From Bacteroides uniformis (lineage in GTDB: Bacteria; Bacillota_I; Bacilli_A; RFN20; CAG-288), in NCBI GenBank assembly GCA_963600815.1, contig CAVCCX010000002.1, forward strand, positions 16,033 through 80,032: DNA of 64,000 nt. The letters run 5' to 3'. The position numbers and the translations under genes are program-made. Shown here one piece after another: positions 7,257-56,661 of this stretch. A model generated the notes under the pieces. The model was not told the origin of the DNA, ran no database searches, and saw nothing but the letters and a program-made list of their open reading frames with translations. Position 1 is the first letter of the stretch. Every line of letters starts with the position of its first letter.

Positions 7257-7276
7257 TTCGTCTCTCTTTGTTTTTT
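7240..7276 (+). terminator. Rho-independent terminator after ymcA
   Basis: gagacgaa/ttcgtctc stem spanning the stop codon, followed by ctttgtttttt. Confidence 0.7.
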
Positions 7277-7315
7277 AAGTATAATAAGAAGACATCAGTT
7301 TCAGAGGACATCATT

Positions 7316-9853
7316 ATGGCAACGAAATCAAAAGAAACCGGGTTTACCCCGATGGTCGAACAATATCTTTCCTTTAAGAAGCAGTACGGCGATATCATCC
7401 TTTTCTTCCGAATCGGAGACTTTTACGAAATGTTTTTGGAAGATGCGCAGATTGTCAGCCGCGAGCTGCAGCTCTTCCTCACGAAGAAGGCCTGTGGAAA
7501 CGGACAATTCATTCCGATGTGCGGAATTCCCCATCACGCCTATCTCCAATACGCCCAGAAACTGATCGACCACGGATATAAAGTCGCCATCTGCGAGCAG
7601 GTCGAGGATCCAAAACTCGCCAAGAAGCTCGTCAAGAGAGATGTCATCCAGATCATCACACCCGGTGCCAATCTCGACTTGACCAACAATGAGAACAACT
7701 TCATCGCCTCCTTGGTGTTGGACCAGCGTCAGGCATTTTTATCCTATGCTGATATCTCCACCGGTGAGATGAAGGCCATGTCCTTGGAAAACAGCTATGC
7801 AAGAATCGTCGAACAGCTTCTTTCCTTGGATATCAAGGAACTTGTCTTAAGAAAAAATACGGACAACAACCTCATCTGCTACATCAAATCGAATTCCAAT
7901 ATCTGCGTTTCCTATTATGAGGATGCTTCCACCTCCATCGAGACGGATTCTCTTTTCGGTGCCCTGAAAGATGAAAGACAGATTGAAGCCTCCGCTCTTC
8001 TCTACAATTATCTGAAGAACATGGAAAGAAGAGACCTGACCTATTTCAAGCCGGTCGAGAACAAGATGGAACAGAAATCCATGAAACTGGATTATTCGGC
8101 CCAGGCGAATATGGAACTCGTCAAATCCCTAGACAACAAGACCTATGGAACCCTCTATTGGCTTTTAAATCAGACCAAGACCCCGATGGGAAGCCGTTAT
8201 CTGAAAAGCCAGATCACGAGTCCAAGCGCAAGCCAGAATGAAATCGAAAAGCGATTGGATCTGACGGAATGTTTCTTGAATCATTATCTTGAAAGAGAAA
8301 CGCTCCGCAAGGATCTCGAATCCGTCTTTGATATGGAAAGACTCATCGCAAGAATGGGCTATGAGAACTGCAACGGACATGACCTTCTCCAGCTCAAGCG
8401 TTCCTTGGAGATTCTTCCGACCATCAAGAAACATCTTTTGCAGATTCAGGACTGTCCACAAGTGACGCATCTTTCGGATAAACTTGGAAATTATGATGAA
8501 CTTGTCTCTCTTCTTGAGAAAGCCATCTCAGAAGATTGTCCTTTGACCATCACCGAAGGCGAAATCTTCAAGAAGGGCTATAACGAGCAATTGGATGAAT
8601 TGATTGCCTTGACAGGCGATGCCAAGGAATGGATCGCCCAACTGGAAATCCGGGAGAAAGAAAGAACCGGAATCAACAAGCTCAAAGTCGGATACACCTC
8701 CGTCTTCGGCTACTATATCGAAGTGACCAAAGCCCAGCTTGACCTCGTCAAGCCGGAATACGGATACATTCGAAAACAGACCCTGACTACCGGAGAAAGA
8801 TTCATCACCGAAGAACTCCAGGAAAAGGAAGCCAAGATTCTGCGTGCCAAAGATGATCGAACCTCCCTAGAATACAAATTGTTCAAGGAACTGAGAAAAT
8901 ATGTCTCTCAGTTCACCTTGCAGATTCAACAGACCTCCGATGCGCTTTCCGAACTCGACTACTATCTCGACCTTGCCTTCGTCAGCTCGGAGAATCACTA
9001 TATCCGTCCTATTTTCAACCAGGAAGGAAAAATCCATGTTCTCAATGCCCGACACCCCATCATCGAAAAGGCAGCTCCGGACAAGGTCTTCGTCTCGAAT
9101 GACTACACCATGGATGAAAAGACGAATGTCCTAATCATCACCGGCCCCAACATGGGCGGCAAATCCACCTATATGAAGGAATTCGGACTCATTGTCATCA
9201 TGGCACAGATTGGTTGCTTTGTTCCTGCCGATTGCTGTGAGATTCCTCTTTTTGGTTCCCTGTTCACTCGTATTGGTGCATCCGACAACCTCATCAAAGG
9301 ACAATCCACCTTCATGACCGAGATGAGCGAAGTCGCCGGCGCCCTGGAAAAAGCCGACGAGCATTCCCTTTTCCTCTTTGATGAAATCGGAAGAGGCACG
9401 GCCACCTTCGATGGTATGGCCATCGCCCAATCCATCATCGAATACATCGTCCGCTTTGTCCATGCGAAGACGTTTTTCTCCACTCACTACCACGAAATCA
9501 CAAAACTAAGTGAGAAGATTCCATCTGTGAAGAACATCCACTGCGATGTGAAAGAATCCGATGGAAAAGTCACTTTCCTCTATAAGATGAGAGATGGTTC
9601 CATGGACCGCTCCTATGGCGTCAATGTTGCCAAACTGGCCGGACTGCCGAATGAAATCATCGAAAGAGCGGATGAACTTCTTGTTTCCCTCGAGCAGAAT
9701 TCTGCCATCAAGGAAAGCCAGGTGAAGAATGTCGTCGCCGAAGAAAAGCCGAAAGACACTCTCCGTGAAGAAATCAAGAAACTCGATCCGATGACACTCT
9801 CTCCCCTGGATGCCCTGAACTATCTCATCGACCTGAAGAAGAGGTGCAAATAA
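7316..9853 (+). CDS. mutS: DNA mismatch repair protein MutS
   Basis: N-terminal TPMVEQY...FFRIGDFYE and Walker A GPNMGGKSTYM. ATG 7316 has an SD-like agagga. The track start at 7268 lies inside the ymcA terminator. Confidence 0.97.
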   Translation: MATKSKETGFTPMVEQYLSFKKQYGDIILFFRIGDFYEMFLEDAQIVSRELQLFLTKKACGNGQFIPMCGIPHHAYLQYAQKLIDHGYKVAICEQVEDPKLAKKLVKRDVIQIITPGANLDLTNNENNFIASLVLDQRQAFLSYADISTGEMKAMSLENSYARIVEQLLSLDIKELVLRKNTDNNLICYIKSNSNICVSYYEDASTSIETDSLFGALKDERQIEASALLYNYLKNMERRDLTYFKPVENKMEQKSMKLDYSAQANMELVKSLDNKTYGTLYWLLNQTKTPMGSRYLKSQITSPSASQNEIEKRLDLTECFLNHYLERETLRKDLESVFDMERLIARMGYENCNGHDLLQLKRSLEILPTIKKHLLQIQDCPQVTHLSDKLGNYDELVSLLEKAISEDCPLTITEGEIFKKGYNEQLDELIALTGDAKEWIAQLEIREKERTGINKLKVGYTSVFGYYIEVTKAQLDLVKPEYGYIRKQTLTTGERFITEELQEKEAKILRAKDDRTSLEYKLFKELRKYVSQFTLQIQQTSDALSELDYYLDLAFVSSENHYIRPIFNQEGKIHVLNARHPIIEKAAPDKVFVSNDYTMDEKTNVLIITGPNMGGKSTYMKEFGLIVIMAQIGCFVPADCCEIPLFGSLFTRIGASDNLIKGQSTFMTEMSEVAGALEKADEHSLFLFDEIGRGTATFDGMAIAQSIIEYIVRFVHAKTFFSTHYHEITKLSEKIPSVKNIHCDVKESDGKVTFLYKMRDGSMDRSYGVNVAKLAGLPNEIIERADELLVSLEQNSAIKESQVKNVVAEEKPKDTLREEIKKLDPMTLSPLDALNYLIDLKKRCK

Positions 9854-11763
9854 TGTCCCAAATCCAATTGATGAAGCCAGAGCTGGCAAACCTCATTGCC
9901 GCTGGCGAAGTGATTGAACGTCCGGCCAGCGTCATCAAGGAATTGGTCGAAAATGCCATCGATGCCAAAGCCAAGAATATCTATATCGGTGTCACCGATG
10001 CCGGAAAAGGCACGATTCTTGTCAAAGATGATGGAACCGGCATGGATCGAGAAGATGCCAAGACCTGTTTTCTAAGACATGCCTCGAGCAAGATCAAGAC
10101 AGAATACGATCTCAACCGAATCCGAACGCTCGGATTCCGCGGCGAGGCCATTCCTTCCATCGCAGCGGTCAGCAAGGTGAAATTGACAACCGCTATCGAA
10201 AATGCGGAGTGCGGCACCCTTGTCGAATCCACACCCAATGAGGAACTTCAGGTTTCCGATACCCTCAATCGGAAAGGCACCATCTTTGAAGTCCGCGATC
10301 TTTTCTATAACACACCCGCCCGACTCAAATATCTCAAGTCCCAGAAAGTCGAGACCTATAGCATCATCGAAACAGTCGAGCATCTCGCTTTGGGCTTCCC
10401 TTCTGTCTCGATTTCCTTAGCCATCGACGGAAAGGAAATCTTCAAGACGAGCGGACGCGGTGACTTATTGGAAACCATCCAGAAGATCTATGGCAATGTC
10501 ATTGCCCAGTCTCTCTATCCGATCAAGAAAGAAGGCATCGCCTATTCCTTCTTTGGCTATATTGCCAAACCGGAAATCAACTATTCCAGAAGGAAGGATA
10601 TGCTTACCTTCCTAAACAATCGCTGCATCTACGACTATAAGATCAACAAAGGAATCGAAGACGCCTATAAGGACTATCTTCCCCCTTTAAGATATCCTTT
10701 CTGCATCATCAATCTCCAGCTGGATTCCTCCTTGGTGGATGTCAATGTCCATCCAACCAAGAAAGAAGTCCGTATCTCTATGGAAGAGGAGATTGCAAGA
10801 GATGTCAAAGAAGAAGTCTTGAAGACACTCGACTATAAAAAGCCGATCTATTTTGCAAGCGAAGACAAGAAAGCCGAATCGCTCATGGTCGAAGAAGATG
10901 CCTTTGACATCTCCGACCTTCAGCAAAATGACTTAGAAAAAGCCAAGGAAAGCCAGGACTATTCCACCATCCATCCCGTCGAAAAATCCCCCATCCCAGA
11001 ATATGTCCAGGATTCTCTTCCTTTTGAGCCGACCTATGAACTAAGAAGTCCACACGTCTCCGGAAATGAAAAGAAAGAAGAATTTTCTTCTTCTGTTCCA
11101 CCAAGTGAAAAGCCTCAGGCGGAATATACCTCCACAGACTACTATTCCACCATCTTCGAAAAGGAGAATATTTCCTATCAGCTTCCCGAGATGCATCCGA
11201 TCGGTCAGGTACTGCAGACCTATGTTCTTTGTGATGGCATCGACTGCTTCTATATCCTCGACCAGCATGCCGCAGCCGAAAGAGTCAATTATGAAAAAAC
11301 CGAAGCCCTCTTCAAAAGCATAAGAAGCCGGATTGTTCCTCTTTTCCCAATCACAGTGGAACTCACCTACAAGGAAAGACTCAACTATGATGAAGAACAT
11401 ATCAATCGTCTAGCCTCCATCGGCATCAAAGTCGAGGAATTCGGAGGAAATTCCATCAAGGTCACCGAGATTCCTTCCTTTCTCAATGAAAAGAACGATG
11501 AGGAGGTCATTCTCGATTGTGTCCATTCCTGTCTGAACAATGAAACGGCCGATCCCATCAGCCTTCTTCATCTGACGATTGCCAATATCGCCTGCAAGAA
11601 ATCCATCAAGGCGAACCATCATATGTCTCTCTTTGAAATCGAAGCCCTGCTCAAAGATCTTGCCAAATGCAAGAATCCGGCCAATTGTCCCCATGGAAGA
11701 CCGACCATCATCAAGATTACGAAAGCCGATGTCGAGAAAATGTTTAGGAGAACCGGATTTTGA
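9853..11763 (+). CDS. mutL: DNA mismatch repair protein MutL
   Basis: GHKL ATPase N-terminus LIAAGEVIERPASVIKELVENAIDA and C-terminal dimerisation region with QHAAAERV. TAATG overlap with mutS, SD gaagagg. Confidence 0.95.
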   Translation: MSQIQLMKPELANLIAAGEVIERPASVIKELVENAIDAKAKNIYIGVTDAGKGTILVKDDGTGMDREDAKTCFLRHASSKIKTEYDLNRIRTLGFRGEAIPSIAAVSKVKLTTAIENAECGTLVESTPNEELQVSDTLNRKGTIFEVRDLFYNTPARLKYLKSQKVETYSIIETVEHLALGFPSVSISLAIDGKEIFKTSGRGDLLETIQKIYGNVIAQSLYPIKKEGIAYSFFGYIAKPEINYSRRKDMLTFLNNRCIYDYKINKGIEDAYKDYLPPLRYPFCIINLQLDSSLVDVNVHPTKKEVRISMEEEIARDVKEEVLKTLDYKKPIYFASEDKKAESLMVEEDAFDISDLQQNDLEKAKESQDYSTIHPVEKSPIPEYVQDSLPFEPTYELRSPHVSGNEKKEEFSSSVPPSEKPQAEYTSTDYYSTIFEKENISYQLPEMHPIGQVLQTYVLCDGIDCFYILDQHAAAERVNYEKTEALFKSIRSRIVPLFPITVELTYKERLNYDEEHINRLASIGIKVEEFGGNSIKVTEIPSFLNEKNDEEVILDCVHSCLNNETADPISLLHLTIANIACKKSIKANHHMSLFEIEALLKDLAKCKNPANCPHGRPTIIKITKADVEKMFRRTGF

Positions 11764-20394: not shown

Positions 20395-22026
20395 TTATCT
20401 TGCGTCTTTGAAGCAGGAACCACCCACAAATTCCCTCATGATGGAATTGCAGGGGATATCCTCCACTTCAATCGGAAGGAAATAGCGGACCATATTCTTC
20501 AATCGGCAGGCAAGAAGATATTCTTCCTGGTCCGGCGTGATCTTCTCCAGAAGGGGAAGAACGATATTCCGAAGGGCTGAAAATTCATACGGGACAAAGG
20601 AATCGAAGACATAATCGGCGTTCTCCTGCGTTGGATAGATATAGGAGAATTCACCCTGACGGACATCGGGCCACATGCGGATGGTTTCCGTGGCATCCGA
20701 ATTTCTTGTGCGGACATCGCGTGCGATTCTTCTTAACAGACGGATATCCGTCATCGAAATCGGAGAATGATTGTCGATATTGACCTGCGGCTGAGGCGCA
20801 ATGAAGATGCGGAACTTCTCCGAAGGAGAGACTTCCTTGAGAACCTGGCTATCCAGGGCATGGATGCCTTCGACAATCAGAGGCTGATTATCCTGCAAGG
20901 TGATGGTCTTCCCTGGCTTTCTCTTCTTGGTGACAAAGTCATAAACAGGAAGCGTGACACTTTCCTGACGGATGAGCTGATCCATCTGGCGGTTGAACAA
21001 TTCAAGATTCAGAGCCTCAACGCTTTCCAGGGAAATATCCGGCGAACTTTCTTCCCTCGTCTTGAAATAATCATCCATCGAAATACGGATTGGACGCAAA
21101 GATTTTGACATCAATTCGAACATCAATCGGTTGGCAAAGCTCGTCTTTCCCGAGGAAGACGGTCCTGCGATAGAGATGACCTTGACGGGTGTCTCCGAGG
21201 ATGTGATCATTCTTCCAAGTTCGGCAATCATATCATTGATTCTCGCCTCACAGAGATTGATGAAGGCCATGGCGGAATTGTTCTTGATAAATCGATTGAT
21301 TCCAAAAACCGTATCCAATTGGTTATTCTTGCTCCAGAGATAGTTTTTCTGCAGGGATTGGGCATAGGTGGGTTCATCCTTGAATTCTGGAATCATGCCA
21401 CCACATTCGCTTCTTGGAACCTGGATGAGGAATCCTGGCGCATAATAGCGAAGCATATATTTCTTCAGATATCCTGTCGAAGGGACAAGGAAGGAATAGA
21501 GATAGTCATCATAGACAAAATCCCCATCCTTGCATTCATCGAGATGGACAAAATTTTCCTTTCGATACTTCAGAATATCGATTTTATCCTTGAATCCAAG
21601 TTTCTTATATCGCTCCAAAGCTTCCTCCTTGGAGATTCTCAACCGCTCGATCTTCAGATCCTTTCTGATGAGTTCCTCCACCTTCTCAGAAAGCTGCTGG
21701 ACAAAGTCAGGCGAAAGGAAGGAATTCTTTCCGTATAAGGGCTTGGCAAACATCGCTCTGGAAATATTATAGAAAAAGCGAAGATCCATCTTCGGTGCGA
21801 TCTCATGGCAAGCCATCGAGATCACATATCGAAGACTGGCAGAATAGATTCGATTGGCATTCTGATCCTTCAGATCGAGGAATTCGATCTCATAGTCGTT
21901 GTCCTTCTCAAAGACGTAATCGAGCTGTCGGACCTTTCCATTGATTTTCGAGCAAATGAAATCCTTTCTGTTCTCTTCCTTCAGAAGTGAAGAAAGGATG
22001 GTTCCTTTTTGAATGTGCTGTTTCAT
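20395..22026 (-). CDS. Uridine-kinase-family P-loop kinase with N-terminal TGS / ThrRS-like region
   Basis: C-terminal half has GPSSSGKTSF, SMDDYF, LPVYDF, IVEGIHAL and LLRRIARD (Udk/PRK family). The N-terminal about 270 aa resemble the TGS plus second additional domain of ThrRS. Confidence 0.75.
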   Translation of the reverse strand: MKQHIQKGTILSSLLKEENRKDFICSKINGKVRQLDYVFEKDNDYEIEFLDLKDQNANRIYSASLRYVISMACHEIAPKMDLRFFYNISRAMFAKPLYGKNSFLSPDFVQQLSEKVEELIRKDLKIERLRISKEEALERYKKLGFKDKIDILKYRKENFVHLDECKDGDFVYDDYLYSFLVPSTGYLKKYMLRYYAPGFLIQVPRSECGGMIPEFKDEPTYAQSLQKNYLWSKNNQLDTVFGINRFIKNNSAMAFINLCEARINDMIAELGRMITSSETPVKVISIAGPSSSGKTSFANRLMFELMSKSLRPIRISMDDYFKTREESSPDISLESVEALNLELFNRQMDQLIRQESVTLPVYDFVTKKRKPGKTITLQDNQPLIVEGIHALDSQVLKEVSPSEKFRIFIAPQPQVNIDNHSPISMTDIRLLRRIARDVRTRNSDATETIRMWPDVRQGEFSYIYPTQENADYVFDSFVPYEFSALRNIVLPLLEKITPDQEEYLLACRLKNMVRYFLPIEVEDIPCNSIMREFVGGSCFKDAR

Positions 22027-24618: not shown

Positions 24619-24890
24619 AAAAAAAATTCCGTCCCAAACACATAAAGAAACTATGTGCTTAAGGACGGAATTCACCGTGTTACCACCTTAATTCGTTCTA
24701 TAGTCGCCTATAGAGCCTCAGAGAGTTCAATCGTCTAAACTCATTTGCTGTCACGGGCATACCCGAAGAAAGCTACTCTTTTTCACTTTCTCAGCTCAGA
24801 GGCCATGTTCGTCACCCTTATCCATCCTGCTTCCACCGTCCAGGACTCTCTATCGGAATATCTGTGAGTACTCTTCCTCATCAACGCTTT
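24619..24890 (-). ncRNA. T-box leader (methionine specifier AUG) controlling metNIQ
   Basis: Minus strand shows a UGAUGA K-turn at the stem I base, an AGAGAG box, a GGUGGAAGC distal loop, specifier context gaacAUGg (24804-24806), and the T-box sequence AAUUAAGGUGGUAACACGGUG (24673-24693). This is followed by terminator uuccgucc...gggacggaa and U8. Confidence 0.88.
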
Positions 24891-24946
24891 TACGTGGCAT
24901 ATTCTAAACTTTCGAATCATAAAAAACAACATCTTTTTTCAAATAA

Positions 24947-40049: not shown

Positions 40050-40079
40050 TTTACATTTCGCTTTCTTCTATCCTATAAT
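40050..40079 (+). promoter_or_regulatory. Sigma-A promoter TTTACA-18-TATAAT immediately upstream of the phosphatase gene
   Basis: -35 at 40050-40055 and -10 at 40074-40079. The ATG is at 40088 with no SD. Confidence 0.5.
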
Positions 40080-40087
40080 CACTGCCT

Positions 40088-40927
40088 ATGAACAATAGAG
40101 AACTCGGAAAAAGAATACCTCTTGAAGGAACTAAGAACACCAGGGATTTAGGTGGCTATCCGACAAAGGATGGCAGAACAATCGCCTATAAAAGACTCAT
40201 CCGCTCAGATTGCCTAGCCAATATCACAAAGAAGGATGAAGATATTCTTCTTCATGATCTTCATGTCCTTTATGAAGTCGATATGCGTGGAAAGCATGAG
40301 ATTCTGACAAGGCCTAATGTAAAACTCGAGAATGTCACTTTCCTTCATCTTCCCATCCAGGAAGAAGAAAAAAGAGAAGAAGACTACAATCCACATACGA
40401 ACATCCTGGTCGAAGACAAAGCACTTCAGCATACTATCGACTACCTCTTCCGGATGGACTTCAAAGGCGATATCACCATCGCATTCGAAAAGGTCTATCG
40501 GAATATGCTCCGTCCTTTTGGAAAAAGCGCCTATGAGAAATTTATCCGTCTCTGCATAAAGAACAAGGAAGGAGCTATCCTCTTCCATTGTGCGGATGGA
40601 AAAGACCGCTCTGGATTGGCCGCTGCCATCCTTCTTCTCTCTCTTGGTGTCGAGAAGGAAATTGTCATCCAGGATTATCTGAAGACAAATGAAAACACCA
40701 TCGACAAGGCTCGAAAACGAGAAGAATACCTCCGCAATGTCGCCCATATTCAAGATGAAACCATCATCAACTCCATTAAGGCAGTGGCTGGTGTAAGAAG
40801 AAACTGGATTGAGGCTGCCTTTGATGAAATGGAAAAACAAGCTGGCACCATCGACAATTTCATCAATCAGGAACTCCATCTCTCAGAGGAAGACTTAGAA
40901 GAACTGAGAAATAACTATCTCATCTGA
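40088..40927 (+). CDS. Tyrosine-protein phosphatase family protein (Y_phosphatase3-like)
   Basis: NTRDLGGY N-terminal block and CX5R P-loop HCADGKDRSG. Confidence 0.85.
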   Translation: MNNRELGKRIPLEGTKNTRDLGGYPTKDGRTIAYKRLIRSDCLANITKKDEDILLHDLHVLYEVDMRGKHEILTRPNVKLENVTFLHLPIQEEEKREEDYNPHTNILVEDKALQHTIDYLFRMDFKGDITIAFEKVYRNMLRPFGKSAYEKFIRLCIKNKEGAILFHCADGKDRSGLAAAILLLSLGVEKEIVIQDYLKTNENTIDKARKREEYLRNVAHIQDETIINSIKAVAGVRRNWIEAAFDEMEKQAGTIDNFINQELHLSEEDLEELRNNYLI

Positions 40928-43417: not shown

Positions 43418-43428
43418 ATTATACATTA
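43418..43428 (-). promoter_or_regulatory. Extended -10 (TAATGTATAAT) upstream of the CNNM genes; left copy of the 11-bp direct repeat
   Basis: The minus strand reads taaTGTATAAT about 27 nt upstream of GTG 43391. No recognisable -35 lies upstream. Confidence 0.45.
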
Positions 43429-43736
43429 TTTCTCGATGATTTTATATAGGGAGAGAGGAAGTACACTTGAATGCTCAAATGAAATAATAACGAAATATCA
43501 TAAGCGGATAAATTTTAAAACAAATATAAAAGAAGTAAACCTAAAACTGTGAATATTTTTCGAGTACTCCCTTGACATATGGGATGTATTTCTTTTTTTA
43601 ACTTCCTTCTTTTCCTATCCTCAAGTCCAGTCGTGTTGGCTGAGACAAGGCGTTCATCGATATCTATATACTAGATACAGGTGGTAACATAGAAGGTTTC
43701 TTCCTAGAAATATATTGTTCATAGACTCATGATTTT

Positions 43737-43780
43737 CCGGCCGCAGCCAGGGCTATCGCCTCAATTCTGGCTGCGGCGGG
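43737..43780 (-). terminator. GC-rich hairpin 6 nt after the stop of the 1154-aa gene (no U-tract)
   Basis: ccgcagccag/ctggctgcgg 10-bp perfect stem, extendable to 11 bp plus 2 more after a mismatch, with a 16-nt loop. Confidence 0.4.
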
Positions 43781-43785
43781 ATTCC

Positions 43786-46700
43786 TCATATCTTGATTGT
43801 GATAGCGGGGCGGACGCCATTGCTCGAATTGTAGACGCGGCTGCCGTTCAGGTCGCCACCATTGTACACATCCAACGCGTCTGTGGGGAAGAAGCTGTGC
43901 GGGGAACGGGTCCAATAAAGGCCATTGCCGTTATATGATGAACTGGAATCGGTATTGTAATATGCTCCGCTTGCCTTTGCATAGTCCGTTGGCTTGCAGC
44001 ATCTTGATTCGTCGTCAGGAAAATACGACGTATTCGTATAATCTTTATAGCTAAGAAGATAGACCTTATCATTCGTATTCTCACAGGCATAGGAGTTGGT
44101 GCTCGAATTCGTTGTCGATGCACTGTTGTCGACTTCCACTGTCTGGCTATAGGATGAATCAAGGGAGAATGCCGAATTATAGAAATCAGAGTTCAGCCAG
44201 GAACGGATATAGCTGTATTTGTAATTGTTGAGATATACAGTCTTTCCATCTATTGTTCGATCAGAAAACGATAAATAATAATATTGATTTGCATCCAATA
44301 AGACTGTCGAGACAAGGGAATAGGTTCCATTGTCAGAAGAAAGCACTTTCCATTCGATTGGCTCACACTTGAACCAATAGGCAGTTCCATTTACGATTTT
44401 CGTTCCATCGCTGAAAGTATAGGAAGTAGAATAAGGTGAAGCCTTCTTCTTGGCATAATAGGCCCCATCATAGAGATACCAGCCATTGGATTCTGCTGTA
44501 GTAAGAGTATTGAGTGTTGAAATTAGAGATGCATCAGAAACATGAGTCTGAGGATATAAACCATAAGTCAAAGTGTTTGTTTCCGATAAATAATTCGGCA
44601 TTTTACCAATCGATTTATCATCTGCCTCTTTTTCTGCGGCAGTCCAAAAACACGCCATTAAAGACTTGTCTCCCGTAGGCATTGTAAATGTATACGTTTC
44701 ATCACGACTTAACAATTGGTTTCCTTCATACCATCCCTTAAAAGTGTAATTGGAATTGGCTGTTGCATTTACAGTTATTTTTTCATTCGTATATCCTTGT
44801 CCCGAAAGAATAAAAACACTTCCTTTTGTCATATTCTCACTTATCACAGTCAATTTATTTAGAATTGCTGACCATTTTCCTCGAAGAGAAAGACTCACCG
44901 AATAGCTTTTGGAATCTAGCGAATACTCTAATAATAACCATTTAAAAGTAAAGCCCGTTTTTTGGCTAGGTTCATTAAGATACTGATTCGCTTTTTTCTT
45001 AATTGTCGTCCGATAATTTCCATCATAATTGACATCGACTATGCCACCGATATTGTAAATATAATCTATTCCTGTTTCAATATCAGAACTTTCGAAAGCC
45101 TTCCCTGCTTCACACATGGCCAAAAGATTCTTATTATCGCCAAAATCACCATTTTTTTGAATTAGCTTGTATGCTTGGTCATACTGCTTGTTATTAAGAT
45201 AATATTGTATATCAGATTGTCTTCCACTTGGAATGAAGACGTTAAAAGTGAGTATCATAAATAGCGTAACTACGCCCACTAATGACAAAGATATGGTTAA
45301 AAATATTTTTTTGCGTTTTAAAAACCACTTTATCTTTTGTGCTTTCTTCAGCTTTTCACATTCAGCGATTTGATTCCTGGAATCCTTATAGGAGATGTTA
45401 TTCATGAAAATACGAATGGCGTCATCATACATTCCACTGTTTTTATAGGAAATGGCTATTCCATATTGTTCTTCACGAATCAAATTTTCGACAATTTCGA
45501 TTTCATTTTTAGAGTCTCTATAATCTTCGATTTTCTTAAACTCGGAAATTGACTGCTGATACATTTTTTTAGATTTATAATCCAGTGCTCTTTGATAGAT
45601 GTTTTCCTTCTTCAACATCTCTGTGCAAAAAGAAATCAGGGAGGAAGAATCCTTATATGCTTTGATGGACTCAAAAAGAGAAATTGCTTTTTTGTAGTTA
45701 TTTTGCGATTTGAGTCGTATAGCATCGTTATAAATCAATTCGTTATTTCGTCTTTGGCAAATATTGATTTGAGAAAAGGAGTCCCTATAGTCCTTGAGCT
45801 GTTTGAAAATGGATATGGCATCCGCATAATATCTAGCGTTTTTTGCATAGAGGCCTTTTTGATAAAGGTCTTCCTTTCCCTGAAGAATCGCGCACTCCTT
45901 CGCTTGTCCGTCCGCATCCTGATATCTATAAATTTTCTGAAATGCATGGCAGGCTTCCTGGTATCTTCTTTCATTCTTCAGATTCATCGCAGAGCCATAA
46001 AGTTGATTCAGCCTTAGCAAAATTTCATCGTTGATTGAATCAAGAAGTTTTTGTAGCTTTGCATCGCCATATTTATAGGCATGACGATAGTTCTCATTTT
46101 GGTCAAGCGGCTCTAAAATTTTTTTTAGTTCATCTTCTCCGCAATGGTATTCAACAAGCAACTCAAGAAAATAAGCTCGACCATTCTTTGCTTCCTTATA
46201 GAGAATCTTATTGAGCAATGGTGTCGCTTCATCATATTTTCCATCATCAATCAAAACCTCTGCTTTGGAAATCATTTCCTCCACTGTCAATTCGATTTTT
46301 TCTTCTTCGTTTCCGAACTTAAGATTCAAGCCATAATGGCGAACACCAATGAGAAGAATTCTTCCAGTCTCTTTAAGAGGCAAGCGATTCTTTTTTGAAA
46401 TCAAAGAAACATATTTGGCAAAGTCGTCAAAGCTAAGATCAAAATTATTGAACTGCTTCTTGTTCTTGAGAACTGACCAAATATCCAAATAGAAAGCAAC
46501 AAAGAGGTCATACATCTTCTTCTTTTCTGGCTTTTGTAGAACGAGACCAACCCTTGCAATGAGTGTCGAATAGGCTTTCTTCTTGCTCTTGTTCATCATA
46601 TTCGATGCAGGAATTTTTTTGGCTTCTTCCATTTTCTTTGCTTTTGCCAGAGTGATTTCATTCTCAGAGGCGGAATAAGGAACACCCAAAAATTCGTAGA

Positions 46701-47250
46701 GGTTTCCACAATTCAGGATTCGATATTCATCATCCAATCCATCAAAAGAAGCAAATTCATCATCCTTCGGCATCAGTTTATCTAATGCATCATCCTTTAA
46801 GACCCAGAAGCCTTTCTGTTCTGCTTCTTTGACAAGTTCATCAAATGAAAAGATATTCTCATTCTGGATACGATTTTCAGATGATTCCACGATATTTTGG
46901 ATCATCGATGGAAGAACGACTTTCGGAGATTTCGATGCACCGAATAAAAATTCCAAAGCTTTTCGAATCGACAGAGTCTTTAAAGATATGCGTTCGATGT
47001 TTCGTCCGCCTTTATTTCGATTATATTTGTTTTTGCTTTTATCATAGACAGCATCGTAAACCATGATTTCTTCTGCATCATTCTTTAAGTCTTGGGCCAG
47101 ACGTGGATTCTTCGGATTGGTCTCACTGGCTTTTTTCTTGATGATGGTATCGATATTCTGCACATTCTTCTCGGAAGGCTTGATTCGATAATAGCGGAAA
47201 TAATTGTATTCCACATCACTCAATTCAACTGATGTTCTTTGCTCTGACAT
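43786..47250 (-). CDS. Large single-pass membrane protein: cytoplasmic N-domain with J-like segment and 44-aa YKDS repeats, TM helix, InlB-B-repeat-like and DUF6273-like ectodomains
   Basis: 1154-aa uninterrupted ORF with SD gaggag 10 nt upstream. NLYEFLGVPYSASENEI (aa 183-199) is J-domain-like but has no HPD. Repeats span aa about 417-635. TM is IFLTISLSLVGVVTLFMILTFNVF (aa about 649-672). NYTFKGWY...LMACF is B-repeat-like (aa about 800-868). IEWKVL...IRSWLN..F...VYLLS...YWTRSP...GVRPAITI is DUF6273-like (aa about 893-1154). Confidence 0.8.
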   Translation of the reverse strand: MSEQRTSVELSDVEYNYFRYYRIKPSEKNVQNIDTIIKKKASETNPKNPRLAQDLKNDAEEIMVYDAVYDKSKNKYNRNKGGRNIERISLKTLSIRKALEFLFGASKSPKVVLPSMIQNIVESSENRIQNENIFSFDELVKEAEQKGFWVLKDDALDKLMPKDDEFASFDGLDDEYRILNCGNLYEFLGVPYSASENEITLAKAKKMEEAKKIPASNMMNKSKKKAYSTLIARVGLVLQKPEKKKMYDLFVAFYLDIWSVLKNKKQFNNFDLSFDDFAKYVSLISKKNRLPLKETGRILLIGVRHYGLNLKFGNEEEKIELTVEEMISKAEVLIDDGKYDEATPLLNKILYKEAKNGRAYFLELLVEYHCGEDELKKILEPLDQNENYRHAYKYGDAKLQKLLDSINDEILLRLNQLYGSAMNLKNERRYQEACHAFQKIYRYQDADGQAKECAILQGKEDLYQKGLYAKNARYYADAISIFKQLKDYRDSFSQINICQRRNNELIYNDAIRLKSQNNYKKAISLFESIKAYKDSSSLISFCTEMLKKENIYQRALDYKSKKMYQQSISEFKKIEDYRDSKNEIEIVENLIREEQYGIAISYKNSGMYDDAIRIFMNNISYKDSRNQIAECEKLKKAQKIKWFLKRKKIFLTISLSLVGVVTLFMILTFNVFIPSGRQSDIQYYLNNKQYDQAYKLIQKNGDFGDNKNLLAMCEAGKAFESSDIETGIDYIYNIGGIVDVNYDGNYRTTIKKKANQYLNEPSQKTGFTFKWLLLEYSLDSKSYSVSLSLRGKWSAILNKLTVISENMTKGSVFILSGQGYTNEKITVNATANSNYTFKGWYEGNQLLSRDETYTFTMPTGDKSLMACFWTAAEKEADDKSIGKMPNYLSETNTLTYGLYPQTHVSDASLISTLNTLTTAESNGWYLYDGAYYAKKKASPYSTSYTFSDGTKIVNGTAYWFKCEPIEWKVLSSDNGTYSLVSTVLLDANQYYYLSFSDRTIDGKTVYLNNYKYSYIRSWLNSDFYNSAFSLDSSYSQTVEVDNSASTTNSSTNSYACENTNDKVYLLSYKDYTNTSYFPDDESRCCKPTDYAKASGAYYNTDSSSSYNGNGLYWTRSPHSFFPTDALDVYNGGDLNGSRVYNSSNGVRPAITIKI
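45346..46002 (-). repeat. Coding tandem repeats: five units of a 44-aa motif (Y..A...F..I..YKDS....I..C)
   Basis: Units begin near aa 419, 463, 507, 551 and 595. The last four are exactly 44 aa apart. Examples: YYADAISIFKQLKDYRDS, YKKAISLFESIKAYKDS, YQQSISEFKKIEDYRDS, YDDAIRIFMNNISYKDS. Confidence 0.8.
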
Positions 47251-47280: not shown

Positions 47281-48141
47281 TTATTTCCTTAATTTTGATG
47301 TAGAAGATATGACTTCAACCCCACTAAATCCATTCTTTTGTAAAAGACAATCAATTTGATCTACCTTTTTGTCCAAGCAGGGACCAATGACAACTTTTTT
47401 CAAAAAACCTGATTTAGGGATTTTTAGACTAAATATCTTTTTGCCAGATTTATCTTTATCAAATTCCCAATAAGCATTTATTTCTGGTAAGCAATCCAAA
47501 AACAATCTCCATGCCAATCGTTGTTCTTTCTCAAACGAAAACTCTTTATTTTTAACAAACGACATCAAATCAAGAAGATATTCTTCAGCTTCATTCCATG
47601 CATACCCATCATTTGAAATATTACTAAATATCTTACCATCAATCTCGCGGCAAGCCTTGTCTATTAATTCATAATACTTTTTCGTGCCACTATAAATGAC
47701 ATCTTGATATAAAACATGGGAAATCGGATATCCAATATTTTTTGGTACCTTTTTCAAGTAGTTCTCGCTAAAGCCTAACATCATCCCCTCTCCTCTAGAA
47801 CCATAGCAAAGCCATTGATTTGCTTTATCAAATTCTTTTGAAAAACTTATTGATAAATATTGAGGGTGCTTTAAGCTATTCGTATCTTTTGATGGCAAAT
47901 CGGTAAAATATCGATGTCTTTTATCTTCAAAATCATTAAAAAAGTTATGGAATATTTCGCAATGATGGCTAGACGACGATATATATCTTTTTTTAAGTTT
48001 TCTATATACTGCCCGAGAAAAGATTTTGATTTCCGAGGAATCATTTAAATTCTGTGCATAGCCAAATCGAATCAAAGATGAAGAAATGATTTTTTCAAAC
48101 GCGTCATATGACGTATAGTGATAAGTCAGTTTATTATTCAT
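47281..48141 (-). CDS. DUF2971-like protein
   Basis: 286 aa. N-terminal LTYHYTSYDAFEKIISSSLIRFGYAQNLNDSSE matches the DUF2971 hallmark (YHYTS ... fs ... lND..E). SD gggag lies 8 nt upstream. It ends 30 nt before the 1154-aa gene on the same strand. Confidence 0.7.
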   Translation of the reverse strand: MNNKLTYHYTSYDAFEKIISSSLIRFGYAQNLNDSSEIKIFSRAVYRKLKKRYISSSSHHCEIFHNFFNDFEDKRHRYFTDLPSKDTNSLKHPQYLSISFSKEFDKANQWLCYGSRGEGMMLGFSENYLKKVPKNIGYPISHVLYQDVIYSGTKKYYELIDKACREIDGKIFSNISNDGYAWNEAEEYLLDLMSFVKNKEFSFEKEQRLAWRLFLDCLPEINAYWEFDKDKSGKKIFSLKIPKSGFLKKVVIGPCLDKKVDQIDCLLQKNGFSGVEVISSTSKLRK

Positions 48142-48254
48142 GTGTATTTCTCCCTATTTGACGGTTCGCATAGTAGACTCGGAATTTACTACTTGCCTGT
48201 TTCTAATCTTATACATAAACGGCATGTAATAAATTTCCTTTCTCAAGGCCATAG

Positions 48255-48288
48255 AAAGAAAAAAGGCCTTGGCTGATAAACCAAGACC
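48255..48288 (-). terminator. Rho-independent terminator between the Udk-CYTH gene/G10 promoter and the DUF2971 gene
   Basis: On the minus strand, ggtcttgg/ccaaggcc 8-bp stem (one G-U pair) with an 8-nt loop, followed by uuuuuu. Confidence 0.75.
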
Positions 48289-48301
48289 CATAATAGGTAT
48301 A

Positions 48302-48329
48302 ATTATACATTACCCCCCCCCCGCGTCAA
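48302..48329 (-). promoter_or_regulatory. Near-consensus sigma-A promoter with a G10 tract in the spacer
   Basis: The minus strand reads TTGACG (48329-48324), then c-GGGGGGGGGG-taatg (16 nt), then TATAAT (48307-48302). A TG precedes the -10, giving an extended -10. Confidence 0.6.
48313..48322. repeat. C10/G10 homopolymer
   Basis: Ten consecutive C on the plus strand, in an intergenic region that is otherwise AT-rich. Confidence 0.95.
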
Positions 48330-48387
48330 TTTTACAAAACCCGAGGAGAAGCAAGGTTTGATAAACATATTGTACAACAAACAGTTC

Positions 48388-49815
48388 TTATTGTGGATAT
48401 TTTTCGAGCATTTCATTGACATATTTCATCGCCAATGCCTCATCTGGATTGTCAAATTCGATGAAATAGCCTTTCCCTTCCACATAGCGGATCGTCAGTT
48501 TCTGTCTTTTGTATTCGATTTTCCACTTGATCTTATGCTGGATGGGACCGATCAAGAATCCTGCGGTTGCGAAATCCTGGATGCAGTCGGATTCATCCTT
48601 CCACACATGATGGAAATCCCCTTCCCGTATGAGAATGTTGATCGGACGGATGATTTTTCCATCCTTTCGGATCTTTGGAATTCCTTTATGGACCAGACTG
48701 GAAGGAACATACGTCTTTCCCTGATCATCCGAATAGGAGCGAAGTCGAAGAATATTCTCGGATGGGGAGACTTCATTTGGTGTCGAGAAATAGGTATCTT
48801 TCTCATAGGTGATCTTCTTGATGAAGGACTCTTTGAGAATCTCATCGATGGCTTTCTTCGAATTGGTGTGTGTCTCCATCTTCGTCTTGTAGAGCGTTCC
48901 ATTCTTCTTCTCGAGGAAGGTCATGTCATTGATATAGATGACATCTGCATTCTCCTTGGAAGGAAGAATCGTCGAGACATAGCTCGGGATGATGTACTTG
49001 AAATAGAGTCTGGTCGTGAAAGCCGAACTTGCGGAGGTATTCTCTGCCTGGCTATCCCGGATGATTCTTCTTAGGAAGAGGGATTTTGGATTTCCATCGA
49101 CGAAATTGGTGATGATTTCCTCTCTTGGGAAAAGACGGATGAGATTGTTGTTCAATGCATAGATACCTTCGATGATGATGCAGTCATAGTCTTTTCCATT
49201 CAGATAGGTATGGCTTGGAATCCTTTCGGAATAAATCTTGGAATACACTTTCTTCTCGACCATCCTGTCCAAAAGAAGATCTTTCACATCCTGGGCGGCG
49301 GAGGACATATCATAGACGATTGGTTCATCAAAATTCAGCACCTTCCATTCCTTATTCAGATAGGAAAGAAACTTCGTAAGTTCCTCTTCGCTTGCAAAAT
49401 AGGAAGAAAGAACACTCTTAAGCTTCAACAAAGAACTTTCCGAGTATTTCTCATCGAAAGGAATTTCCATCAGAATCGGCTTGATGGCCGAGGAAATCTC
49501 CTCAAGATGCTCTAGTTTTCCATCATAGTAGTTCTGATTCACCTTGAGAGGAATGAGGTGGCTAAGTCCCACATTGTAGTTATCCAAGGAAAGAATGCAG
49601 GAATGATGTCCGTTTCTTTCTAAGACATCCTCGAGAAGTCTTGCACAATACGATTTTCCACTCGAAGAGGCACCGGCGATGAACACGACGGCCTTTTTCT
49701 TTTTCTCGAGGGTTTCCTCGATGAGATCGATATTGGCACTGACCCATTTGTCAGGATGATGATACTTGTATTGCATAAGAAGAAAAACCTTTTCTATGGA
49801 TTCATGGAAATCCAT
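48388..49815 (-). CDS. Uridine-kinase-family P-loop kinase fused to a C-terminal CYTH-like domain
   Basis: N-terminal half has IAGASSSGKSY, SLDNY, NFDEPIVYD, IIIEGIYAL and LRRIIRD. The C-terminal about 170 aa has a CyaB/CYTH-like pattern (EKDTYFSTP, ILRLRSY, KIKWKIEYKRQKLTIRYVEGKGYFIEFD). Start uncertain: 49815 overlaps cvpA, and ATG 49776 is the alternative. Confidence 0.7.
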   Translation of the reverse strand: MDFHESIEKVFLLMQYKYHHPDKWVSANIDLIEETLEKKKKAVVFIAGASSSGKSYCARLLEDVLERNGHHSCILSLDNYNVGLSHLIPLKVNQNYYDGKLEHLEEISSAIKPILMEIPFDEKYSESSLLKLKSVLSSYFASEEELTKFLSYLNKEWKVLNFDEPIVYDMSSAAQDVKDLLLDRMVEKKVYSKIYSERIPSHTYLNGKDYDCIIIEGIYALNNNLIRLFPREEIITNFVDGNPKSLFLRRIIRDSQAENTSASSAFTTRLYFKYIIPSYVSTILPSKENADVIYINDMTFLEKKNGTLYKTKMETHTNSKKAIDEILKESFIKKITYEKDTYFSTPNEVSPSENILRLRSYSDDQGKTYVPSSLVHKGIPKIRKDGKIIRPINILIREGDFHHVWKDESDCIQDFATAGFLIGPIQHKIKWKIEYKRQKLTIRYVEGKGYFIEFDNPDEALAMKYVNEMLEKYPQ

Positions 49816-56632: not shown

Positions 56633-56661
56633 TTGAAAAAAAGACTCATCTTCTATATAAT
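56633..56661 (+). promoter_or_regulatory. Sigma-A promoter TTGAAA-17-TATAAT for rpsT
   Basis: -35 at 56633-56638 and -10 at 56656-56661, about 52 nt upstream of the rpsT ATG. Confidence 0.6.

Follow-up and report, generated by a model that had tools for sequence, protein, structure and literature searches.

The window, that is, the whole stretch of 64,000 nucleotides analysed here, is ordinary chromosome (recA, rny, mutS, mutL, dnaK, dnaJ and rnj are all present) from an uncultured lineage of the Bacillota, class Bacilli, that is represented by MAGs alone; the named homologues closest to a neighbouring gene are annotated as 'Bacilli bacterium' and Candidatus Enterosoma. The locus described below reads along the minus strand and comprises a PRK/CYTH gene, a pair of cargo genes enclosed by direct repeats, and a pair of CNNM genes:

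48388-49815, minus strand: PRK/CYTH gene, 475 aa, upstream of the G tract
48392-48424, minus strand: left 33-nt direct repeat, ATATGTCAATGAAATGCTCGAAAAATATCCACA, at the 3' end of the PRK/CYTH gene
47281-48141, minus strand: DUF2971 protein, 286 aa, the first cargo gene
43786-47250, minus strand: 1154-aa membrane/surface protein, the second cargo gene
43737-43779, minus strand: very stable, GC-rich hairpin lacking a U-run, just 3' of the stop of the 1154-aa gene
43548-43580, minus strand: right 33-nt direct repeat, ATATGTCAAGGGAGTACTCGAAAAATATTCACA, beyond which native intergenic sequence resumes
After the right repeat, downstream of the 1154-aa gene: two CNNM genes

A second protein with a PRK/uridine-kinase domain (543 aa; 20395-22026, minus strand) is also encoded within the window.

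A near-consensus promoter with a homopolymeric spacer

Between the PRK/CYTH gene and the first cargo gene lies a promoter-like sequence with the following elements:

48324-48329, minus strand: −35 hexamer TTGACG, matching the consensus at 5/6 positions
48308-48323, minus strand: 16-nt spacer between TTGACG and TATAAT
48313-48322, minus strand: G10 homopolymer (C10 on the plus strand), wholly within the 16-nt spacer
48302-48307, minus strand: −10 hexamer TATAAT, matching the consensus at 6/6 positions
48294-48296, minus strand: predicted transcription start, placed ~7 nt past the −10 hexamer

The minus strand from 48329 to 48302 reads TTGACG c GGGGGGGGGG taatg TATAAT, which bears out, letter for letter, the original prediction of a near-consensus promoter whose spacer is filled by ten G's. 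An A/T-rich stretch, TTTTGTAAAA, lies directly upstream of the −35 hexamer, and the sequences that flank the G tract, AAATTGACGC and TAATGTATAATTATACC, are usable as anchors. The proposed TG extension of the −10 hexamer has to be dropped: the TG adjoins the hexamer directly, unlike that of the TGnTATAAT arrangement (the scan returned TG_before_second: no), and, in the absence of an intervening base, it is not a canonical extended −10 element.

In a consensus scan, this site is the best promoter match (11/12) between 43 and 52 kb. Across both strands of the 64-kb window, three matches of at least 11/12 were found, compared with 0.95 +/- 1.1 in simulations under a first-order Markov model. Each of the three lies in intergenic DNA and faces a gene, namely, rpsT (match at 56633, plus strand), the Y_phosphatase3 gene (TTTACA-18-TATAAT at 40050-40090, plus strand) and those of the islet. 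Given that both of the other sites are correctly placed before genes, this stringency seems to pick real promoters here. Only 9 nt separate the end of the match at 40050 from the start codon of the Y_phosphatase3 gene (ATG at 40088), which suggests that the mRNA of this gene is leaderless or almost so.

The tract had also been proposed to be the only G/C run of its length, and it is indeed the sole G/C run of at least 7 in the window, the runner-up being a single G6. G/C runs of at least 6 are rarer than expected (two observed versus 15.2 simulated in the 64-kb window), and runs of at least 10 have an expectation of 0.08 per window; as the G10 run falls entirely within the spacer of one of the three top promoter matches, its position is not due to chance. 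Whereas G/C homopolymers are strongly avoided, the window has many A/T runs of 6 to 8.

The promoter lies within an acquired islet

The promoter heads a 4.84-kb islet that is inserted in the PRK/CYTH gene at its 3' end, the junction coming after the ...CCACA of the left repeat. The two repeats agree at 27/33 positions, with an alignment score of 48 (compared with 24 +/- 3.7 for shuffled sequences), and the insertion has replaced the last codon of the PRK/CYTH gene, such that the protein ends ...KYPQ* in the presence of the islet and ...KYPQF* at empty sites. The latter were found in at least four conspecific assemblies (L011 to L014; about 96-97.5% DNA identity), and in these, as in the two sister species represented by L002 and L003, the PRK/CYTH gene adjoins the CNNM genes directly. 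The GC content of the islet is 33-37% versus 42-48% for the flanks. Flanking repeats that duplicate the target, together with conspecific empty sites, identify the islet as a site-specific integrated element of the CIME-like kind and as horizontally acquired DNA. Measured from the upstream end of the islet, the G-tract promoter is located ~70 nt inwards, and it therefore belongs to the acquired DNA rather than to the ancestral intergenic region.

The islet contains two long ORFs, neither of which encodes a recombinase, and it has no integrase or recombinase of its own; none was seen among 20 further ORFs of the window either. At its downstream end, the hairpin that follows the 1154-aa gene may be a terminator or an islet-end element: the 101-nt fold that surrounds it (43800-43700) has a z of −5.2, and the hairpin is conserved in a second islet-bearing assembly (L005), where a C-to-T change retains a G-U pair. 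DNA pattern scans with a variable gap, which were directed at the promoter module, gave no match in genome_contigs, metagenome_contigs or viral_contigs, in all of which this species is absent; its proteins were found only through NCBI, Logan and ENA.

The cargo genes

The first cargo protein matches DUF2971 (PF11185; E-value 8.6e-8, above the gathering score), as well as phrog_1762 (E-value 5e-17). The DUF2971 family has been assigned a predicted ADP-ribosyltransferase fold, related to DarT and AbiGi (PMC12522546), and it includes Aristaios, a lactococcal protein for which abortive infection has been shown by experiment (PMC11381338). By eye only, an E-x-E motif (FEKEQR) and a YHYTS motif can be recognized in the cargo protein; a single-sequence AlphaFold model had a pLDDT of 36 and was unusable. 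Sequence searches of the PDB and a PADLOC run on the cargo, using a database that predates Aristaios, yielded no match, and no DUF2971 member was found among viral contigs.

The second cargo protein combines a weak J-domain-like match, repeats, one transmembrane helix, an InlB B-repeat and DUF6273. Comparison between strains shows it to be mosaic: identity is ~98% over the first 290 aa, ~40% in the middle and 66% in the C-terminal part, and the overall length is 1154 aa in the window versus 1327 aa in L005 (8892-12875). This pattern of sequence conservation is typical of an exposed, diversifying protein. A search with its N-terminal 330 aa scored no homologues, and an exact look-up of the 475-aa PRK/CYTH product and the 1154-aa product returned no record. 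Genes of the DUF2971 and surface-protein types would both be plausible targets of stochastic control.

A further assembly, L008, carries the same module of promoter, G tract, hairpin and Shine-Dalgarno site (8448-8693), here joined directly to another cargo ORF, MNGGEENNSNKQVEKGKLINDALDAG... Conservation of the module extends through GAGAAAGGAA, and the alternative ORF begins 6 nt past the Shine-Dalgarno site; 145 nt of this ORF are present before the end of the contig. From this arrangement, it follows that transcription of the L008 cargo must start upstream of the hairpin and cross it.

The leader between promoter and cargo

Downstream of the predicted start, the leader carries the following elements:

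48264-48289, minus strand: hairpin HP1, terminator-like, with 11 pairs and a 4-nt loop (−15.4 kcal/mol; z −4.5)
48253-48263, minus strand: U-rich run U6CUUUCU, directly 3' of HP1
48234-48244, minus strand: Shine-Dalgarno-like GAGAAAGGAAA, the last conserved element of the module
48154-48225, minus strand: 23-codon small ORF, MPFMYKIRNRQVVNSESTMRTVK, the stop of which adjoins the Shine-Dalgarno site of the DUF2971 gene

HP1 begins only ~6 nt past the predicted start (~48295) and is the strongest terminator-like element of the region; by prediction, it has the form of an intrinsic (Rho-independent) terminator, in that a GC-containing stem-loop is followed by a U-run. In L008, an A-to-G change within the stem keeps the pair as U-G. 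The U-rich run is predicted to pair with GAGAAAGGAAA to give a second hairpin, HP2, whereas its partner in a fold of the full leader is the Shine-Dalgarno site of the DUF2971 gene. HP1 is so near to the start, with no upstream room for an antiterminator, that most transcripts might end at ~40 nt, and its location downstream of the start lowers confidence that the promoter yields much full-length mRNA. We conclude that HP1 is part of the 5' leader, where it may serve to attenuate transcription, to terminate it leakily or to stabilize the 5' end, and this hairpin, together with the sequestered ribosome-binding site, would probably keep basal expression low. The consensus scan revealed no promoter-like site between HP1 and the DUF2971 gene. 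An Rfam search of the locus at permissive thresholds returned no family; the only Rfam match at the gathering score in the window is a T-box leader at 24658-24893 (minus strand; 116 bits).

The 23-codon ORF is possibly a leader ORF, or else a remnant. A 45-codon ORF in the same frame would begin at an ATG at 48289-48291 (minus strand), 4 to 6 nt past the predicted start; this codon reads ATA in L005 and in a fourth islet-bearing assembly, L010, and ACG in L008, and, given the loss of the start codon in all three, the 45-codon ORF is probably spurious. A translational switch was also considered and rejected: the only ORFs that run over the tract are of 30 to 39 codons and are implausible, and with no credible ORF across it, the tract cannot act by frameshifting.

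Tract length differs between strains

Four islet-bearing assemblies of the same species, derived from different samples but apparently from one short-read sequencing project, allow the length of the tract to be compared:

Window: G10, 16-nt spacer; Logan contig of SRR13434611 100% identical
L005 (GCA_963659405.1): G9, 15-nt spacer; Logan contig of SRR13434598 (L006) 100% identical
L008 (GCA_963646135.1): G9, 15-nt spacer; Logan contig L009 stops short of the tract
L010 (GCA_963641725.1): G8, 14-nt spacer; one assembly

An invariant length across strains had been named in advance as evidence against a switch. Instead, the tract varies (G10, G9, G9 and G8) between flanks that are near-identical: the −35 and −10 hexamers are invariant in 4/4 assemblies, and the few SNPs in the module are confined to the sequence just 5' of the −35 hexamer, the start region and the hairpin. 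A four-way alignment of 7.7 kb contains 226 variable columns and three indel sites, of which the G tract is the only one that is multi-allelic. The closest pair, L005 and L010, share 99.7% identity over 13.35 kb and yet carry G9 and G8, respectively. The tract is thus mutable in length exactly within the spacer, such that the −35/−10 spacing shifts between 16, 15 and 14 nt, and we are confident that tract length truly differs between strains. Transcriptional phase-variable loci in Neisseria have been recognized by length differences of this sort (PMC5320596).

The run does not have the character of a poly-G sequencer artefact, as it is internal, with unique conserved flanks in four samples. 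Logan contig L009 (SRR13434625) ends 16 nt before the G-run, at position 8439 of L008, whereas the SPAdes MAG continues through it; this end may reflect a branch in the assembly graph or a drop in coverage.

Intact copies of mutS (7268-9853, plus strand) and mutL (9844-11763, plus strand) are present in the window and the organism is therefore probably proficient in mismatch repair, in which respect it would differ from many of the classical users of homopolymeric phase variation. The presence of MutS and MutL lowers slippage rates, and this counts against the tract being a switch.

A spacer-length switch and its alternatives

Taking these observations together, we lean towards the view that tract length modulates transcription of the cargo by acting as a promoter-spacer switch. 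Slipped-strand mispairing during replication would add or remove G's in the spacer of a sigma-A/sigma-70-type promoter; G8, G9 and G10 would give distances of 14, 15 and 16 nt, respectively, and G11 would give the optimal −35/−10 distance of 17 nt. The spacing would in turn determine, heritably and stochastically, whether the islet cargo is transcribed at an intermediate level, at a low level or not at all, with the G10 allele of the window predicted to represent the intermediate state; the resulting transcript would have to cross the 5'-proximal hairpin with its U-run, as well as the sequestered ribosome-binding site. Here, we infer that the promoter is used, that its spacing affects expression and that the changes are reversible. 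Promoter-spacer switches are defined by five features: the position of the tract, its polymorphism between closely related strains, use of a transcription start ~7 nt past the −10 hexamer, expression that varies with tract length, and reversible, high-frequency switching in a population. The first two of these were found at this locus. None of the four observed alleles (0/4) gives the optimal 17-nt spacer, and those with G8 and G9 may be dead promoters.

A less probable account, and one that we hold to be rather doubtful, is that the tract is hypermutable but without effect, its length drifting neutrally while the cargo is either fed by read-through from the PRK/CYTH operon or largely silent or decaying. 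The terminator-like HP1 right after the predicted start would fit with this, as would the sub-optimal length (14 to 16 nt) of every spacer seen and the dispensability of the islet, which is missing in conspecific strains. However, HP1 would equally block read-through from upstream, and a neutral tract does not sit well with the quality of the promoter: just three sites in 64 kb, this one included, match at 11/12 or better, and the other two are well placed before genes. Moreover, the hexamers are invariant although the tract varies, and the module is intact before other cargo in L008.

We consider it quite unlikely that errors of sequencing or assembly in a long G homopolymer account for the length differences and that the true tract is uniform. 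The lengths in the window and in L005 were reproduced by a second assembler with 100% identity, the lengths track distinct strain backgrounds, and the presence of just two other indels in 7.7 kb indicates low indel noise in the assemblies; these points have to be set against the error-prone nature of homopolymers, the seemingly single short-read project behind the assemblies, and the termination of L009 16 nt before the tract. It is very improbable that the G-run instead acts in RNA, by pairing with the pyrimidine tract CUUCUCCUCG (48342-48351, minus strand) or with the hairpin's U/C-rich tail, and thereby influences termination or stability within the 3' UTR of the PRK/CYTH gene or within the islet leader, as tuned by tract length: pyrimidine tracts do lie on both sides of the G-run, and the predicted fold of the PRK/CYTH read-through transcript pairs G10 with CUUCUCCUCG (z −2.9 for the 141-nt region), but any CU tract will serve in silico as a partner for poly-G, the helix tolerates a 2-nt loss, there is neither covariation available nor an Rfam family match, and perfect hexamers at exact promoter spacing would be left unexplained.

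The CNNM genes

The original prediction was of phase-variable transcription of the DUF2971/1154-aa cassette and, possibly, of the CNNM genes beyond it. The first part gains from the tract-length polymorphism between strains, whereas the extension to the CNNM genes is not supported: their native upstream region is retained beyond the islet, with 96% identity to the empty-site strains over the stretch that starts at the right repeat and enters the CNNM genes, and these genes consequently do not need the islet promoter. As the islet-end hairpin lacks a U-run, read-through into the CNNM genes may occur.

Within 64 kb, there are exactly two copies of the 11-mer TAATGTATAAT (0.01 expected), both on the minus strand, one within the G-tract promoter (48302-48312) and one within the native CNNM promoter (43418-43428), and these copies are located 80 and 120 nt downstream of the respective copies of the direct repeat. 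In the native CNNM intergenic sequence, GAGAAA occupies the place taken by the G-run in the islet. From this resemblance in sequence, the left module of the islet may derive from the native intergenic region as a copy that has since diverged, the homology of the two being not significant past a 14-mer.

Comparison with known systems

Homopolymeric switches in promoter spacers are textbook in a few pathogens (Neisseria, Treponema, Mycoplasma and Bordetella) and, to our knowledge, have rarely been documented in uncultured commensal Bacillota. In Mycoplasma hyorhinis, poly-A tracts in the promoter spacers of the vlp genes control variable surface proteins. This system resembles the present one in belonging to a related low-GC lineage and in placing the switch beside surface protein genes that vary in size and sequence; it differs in that the vlp tract is poly-A in a host without MutS and MutL, whereas here it is poly-G and both genes are present. 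Mycoplasmas are not known to possess MutS or MutL.

In the porA (poly-G) and fetA/frpB (poly-C) promoters of Neisseria, as here, a G/C homopolymer of ~9 to 14 nt lies between sigma-70-type hexamers, and its length is strain-variable and sets the spacing. The range of tract lengths in porA (van der Ende, 1995) reportedly resembles the 8 to 10 G's seen here. For fetA specifically, the poly-C tract is located between the −35 and −10 elements and its strain-variable length sets their spacing (PMC5320596). The Neisseria genes encode core outer-membrane proteins, whereas the present tract is carried on an acquired islet of an uncultured Bacilli lineage; moreover, unlike in Neisseria, a terminator-like hairpin follows the start, and our locus is known from sequence alone. 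In Treponema pallidum, the tp0126, tprL and tprE,G,J promoters similarly contain a poly-G tract that varies from 7 to 11 in length, and for tp0126, expression is best when the −35/−10 distance is 17 nt (PMC7864442). The Treponema promoters are backed by mapped transcription starts, within-strain heterogeneity in fragment length and reporter assays, whereas consensus assemblies are what is available for the present one. The G10 run passes the usual threshold for phase variation, which is a G/C tract of at least 7 (PMC6321876), and the locus is likely to be a member of the switch type represented by porA, fetA and tp0126.

By analogy, the cargo would also seem to be of a type that is often phase-varied, consisting as it does of a mosaic surface protein and a member of the family of Aristaios. 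The pilus of Bifidobacterium breve provides an instance in which slippage in a G tract controls a surface structure of a gut commensal (PMC9187656); that switch is intragenic and operates by frameshift, whereas the tract described here is located in a promoter. Aristaios itself is a single-gene DUF2971 system of 316 aa; the protein encoded here has 286 aa, is likened to it by family membership alone, and its gene is paired with that of a large membrane protein, whereas Aristaios stands alone as one gene.

The interest of the locus lies in a lone contingency tract on a mobile islet, in a genome that otherwise avoids G/C runs; this tract seems to gate an ADP-ribosyltransferase-like gene with a possible antiphage role, together with a fast-evolving surface protein. 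We regard it as mildly novel in respect of its uncultured, mismatch-repair-proficient Bacilli host, its islet with a conserved module and exchangeable cargo, and its promoter-proximal hairpin. If the tract does act as a switch, metagenome assemblies alone can expose phase-variable loci through tract polymorphism between samples, and accessory or defence cargo can bring along its own stochastic switch.

A more far-reaching reading, which we advance only tentatively and think on the whole unlikely, is that the conserved stretch from the 33-nt, attachment-like repeat to the Shine-Dalgarno site, with the G-tract promoter and the 5' hairpin in between, constitutes a portable module for stochastic expression that forms the fixed upstream end of a cargo-swapping, site-specific islet. 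On this reading, the module would drive the DUF2971 and mosaic surface protein genes in three strains and an unrelated ORF in L008, and a mismatch-repair-proficient lineage would have put exchangeable cargo, possibly including an antiphage ADP-ribosyltransferase, under the control of a contingency switch. Such a module would be loosely analogous to the promoter of an integron, but phase-variable here.
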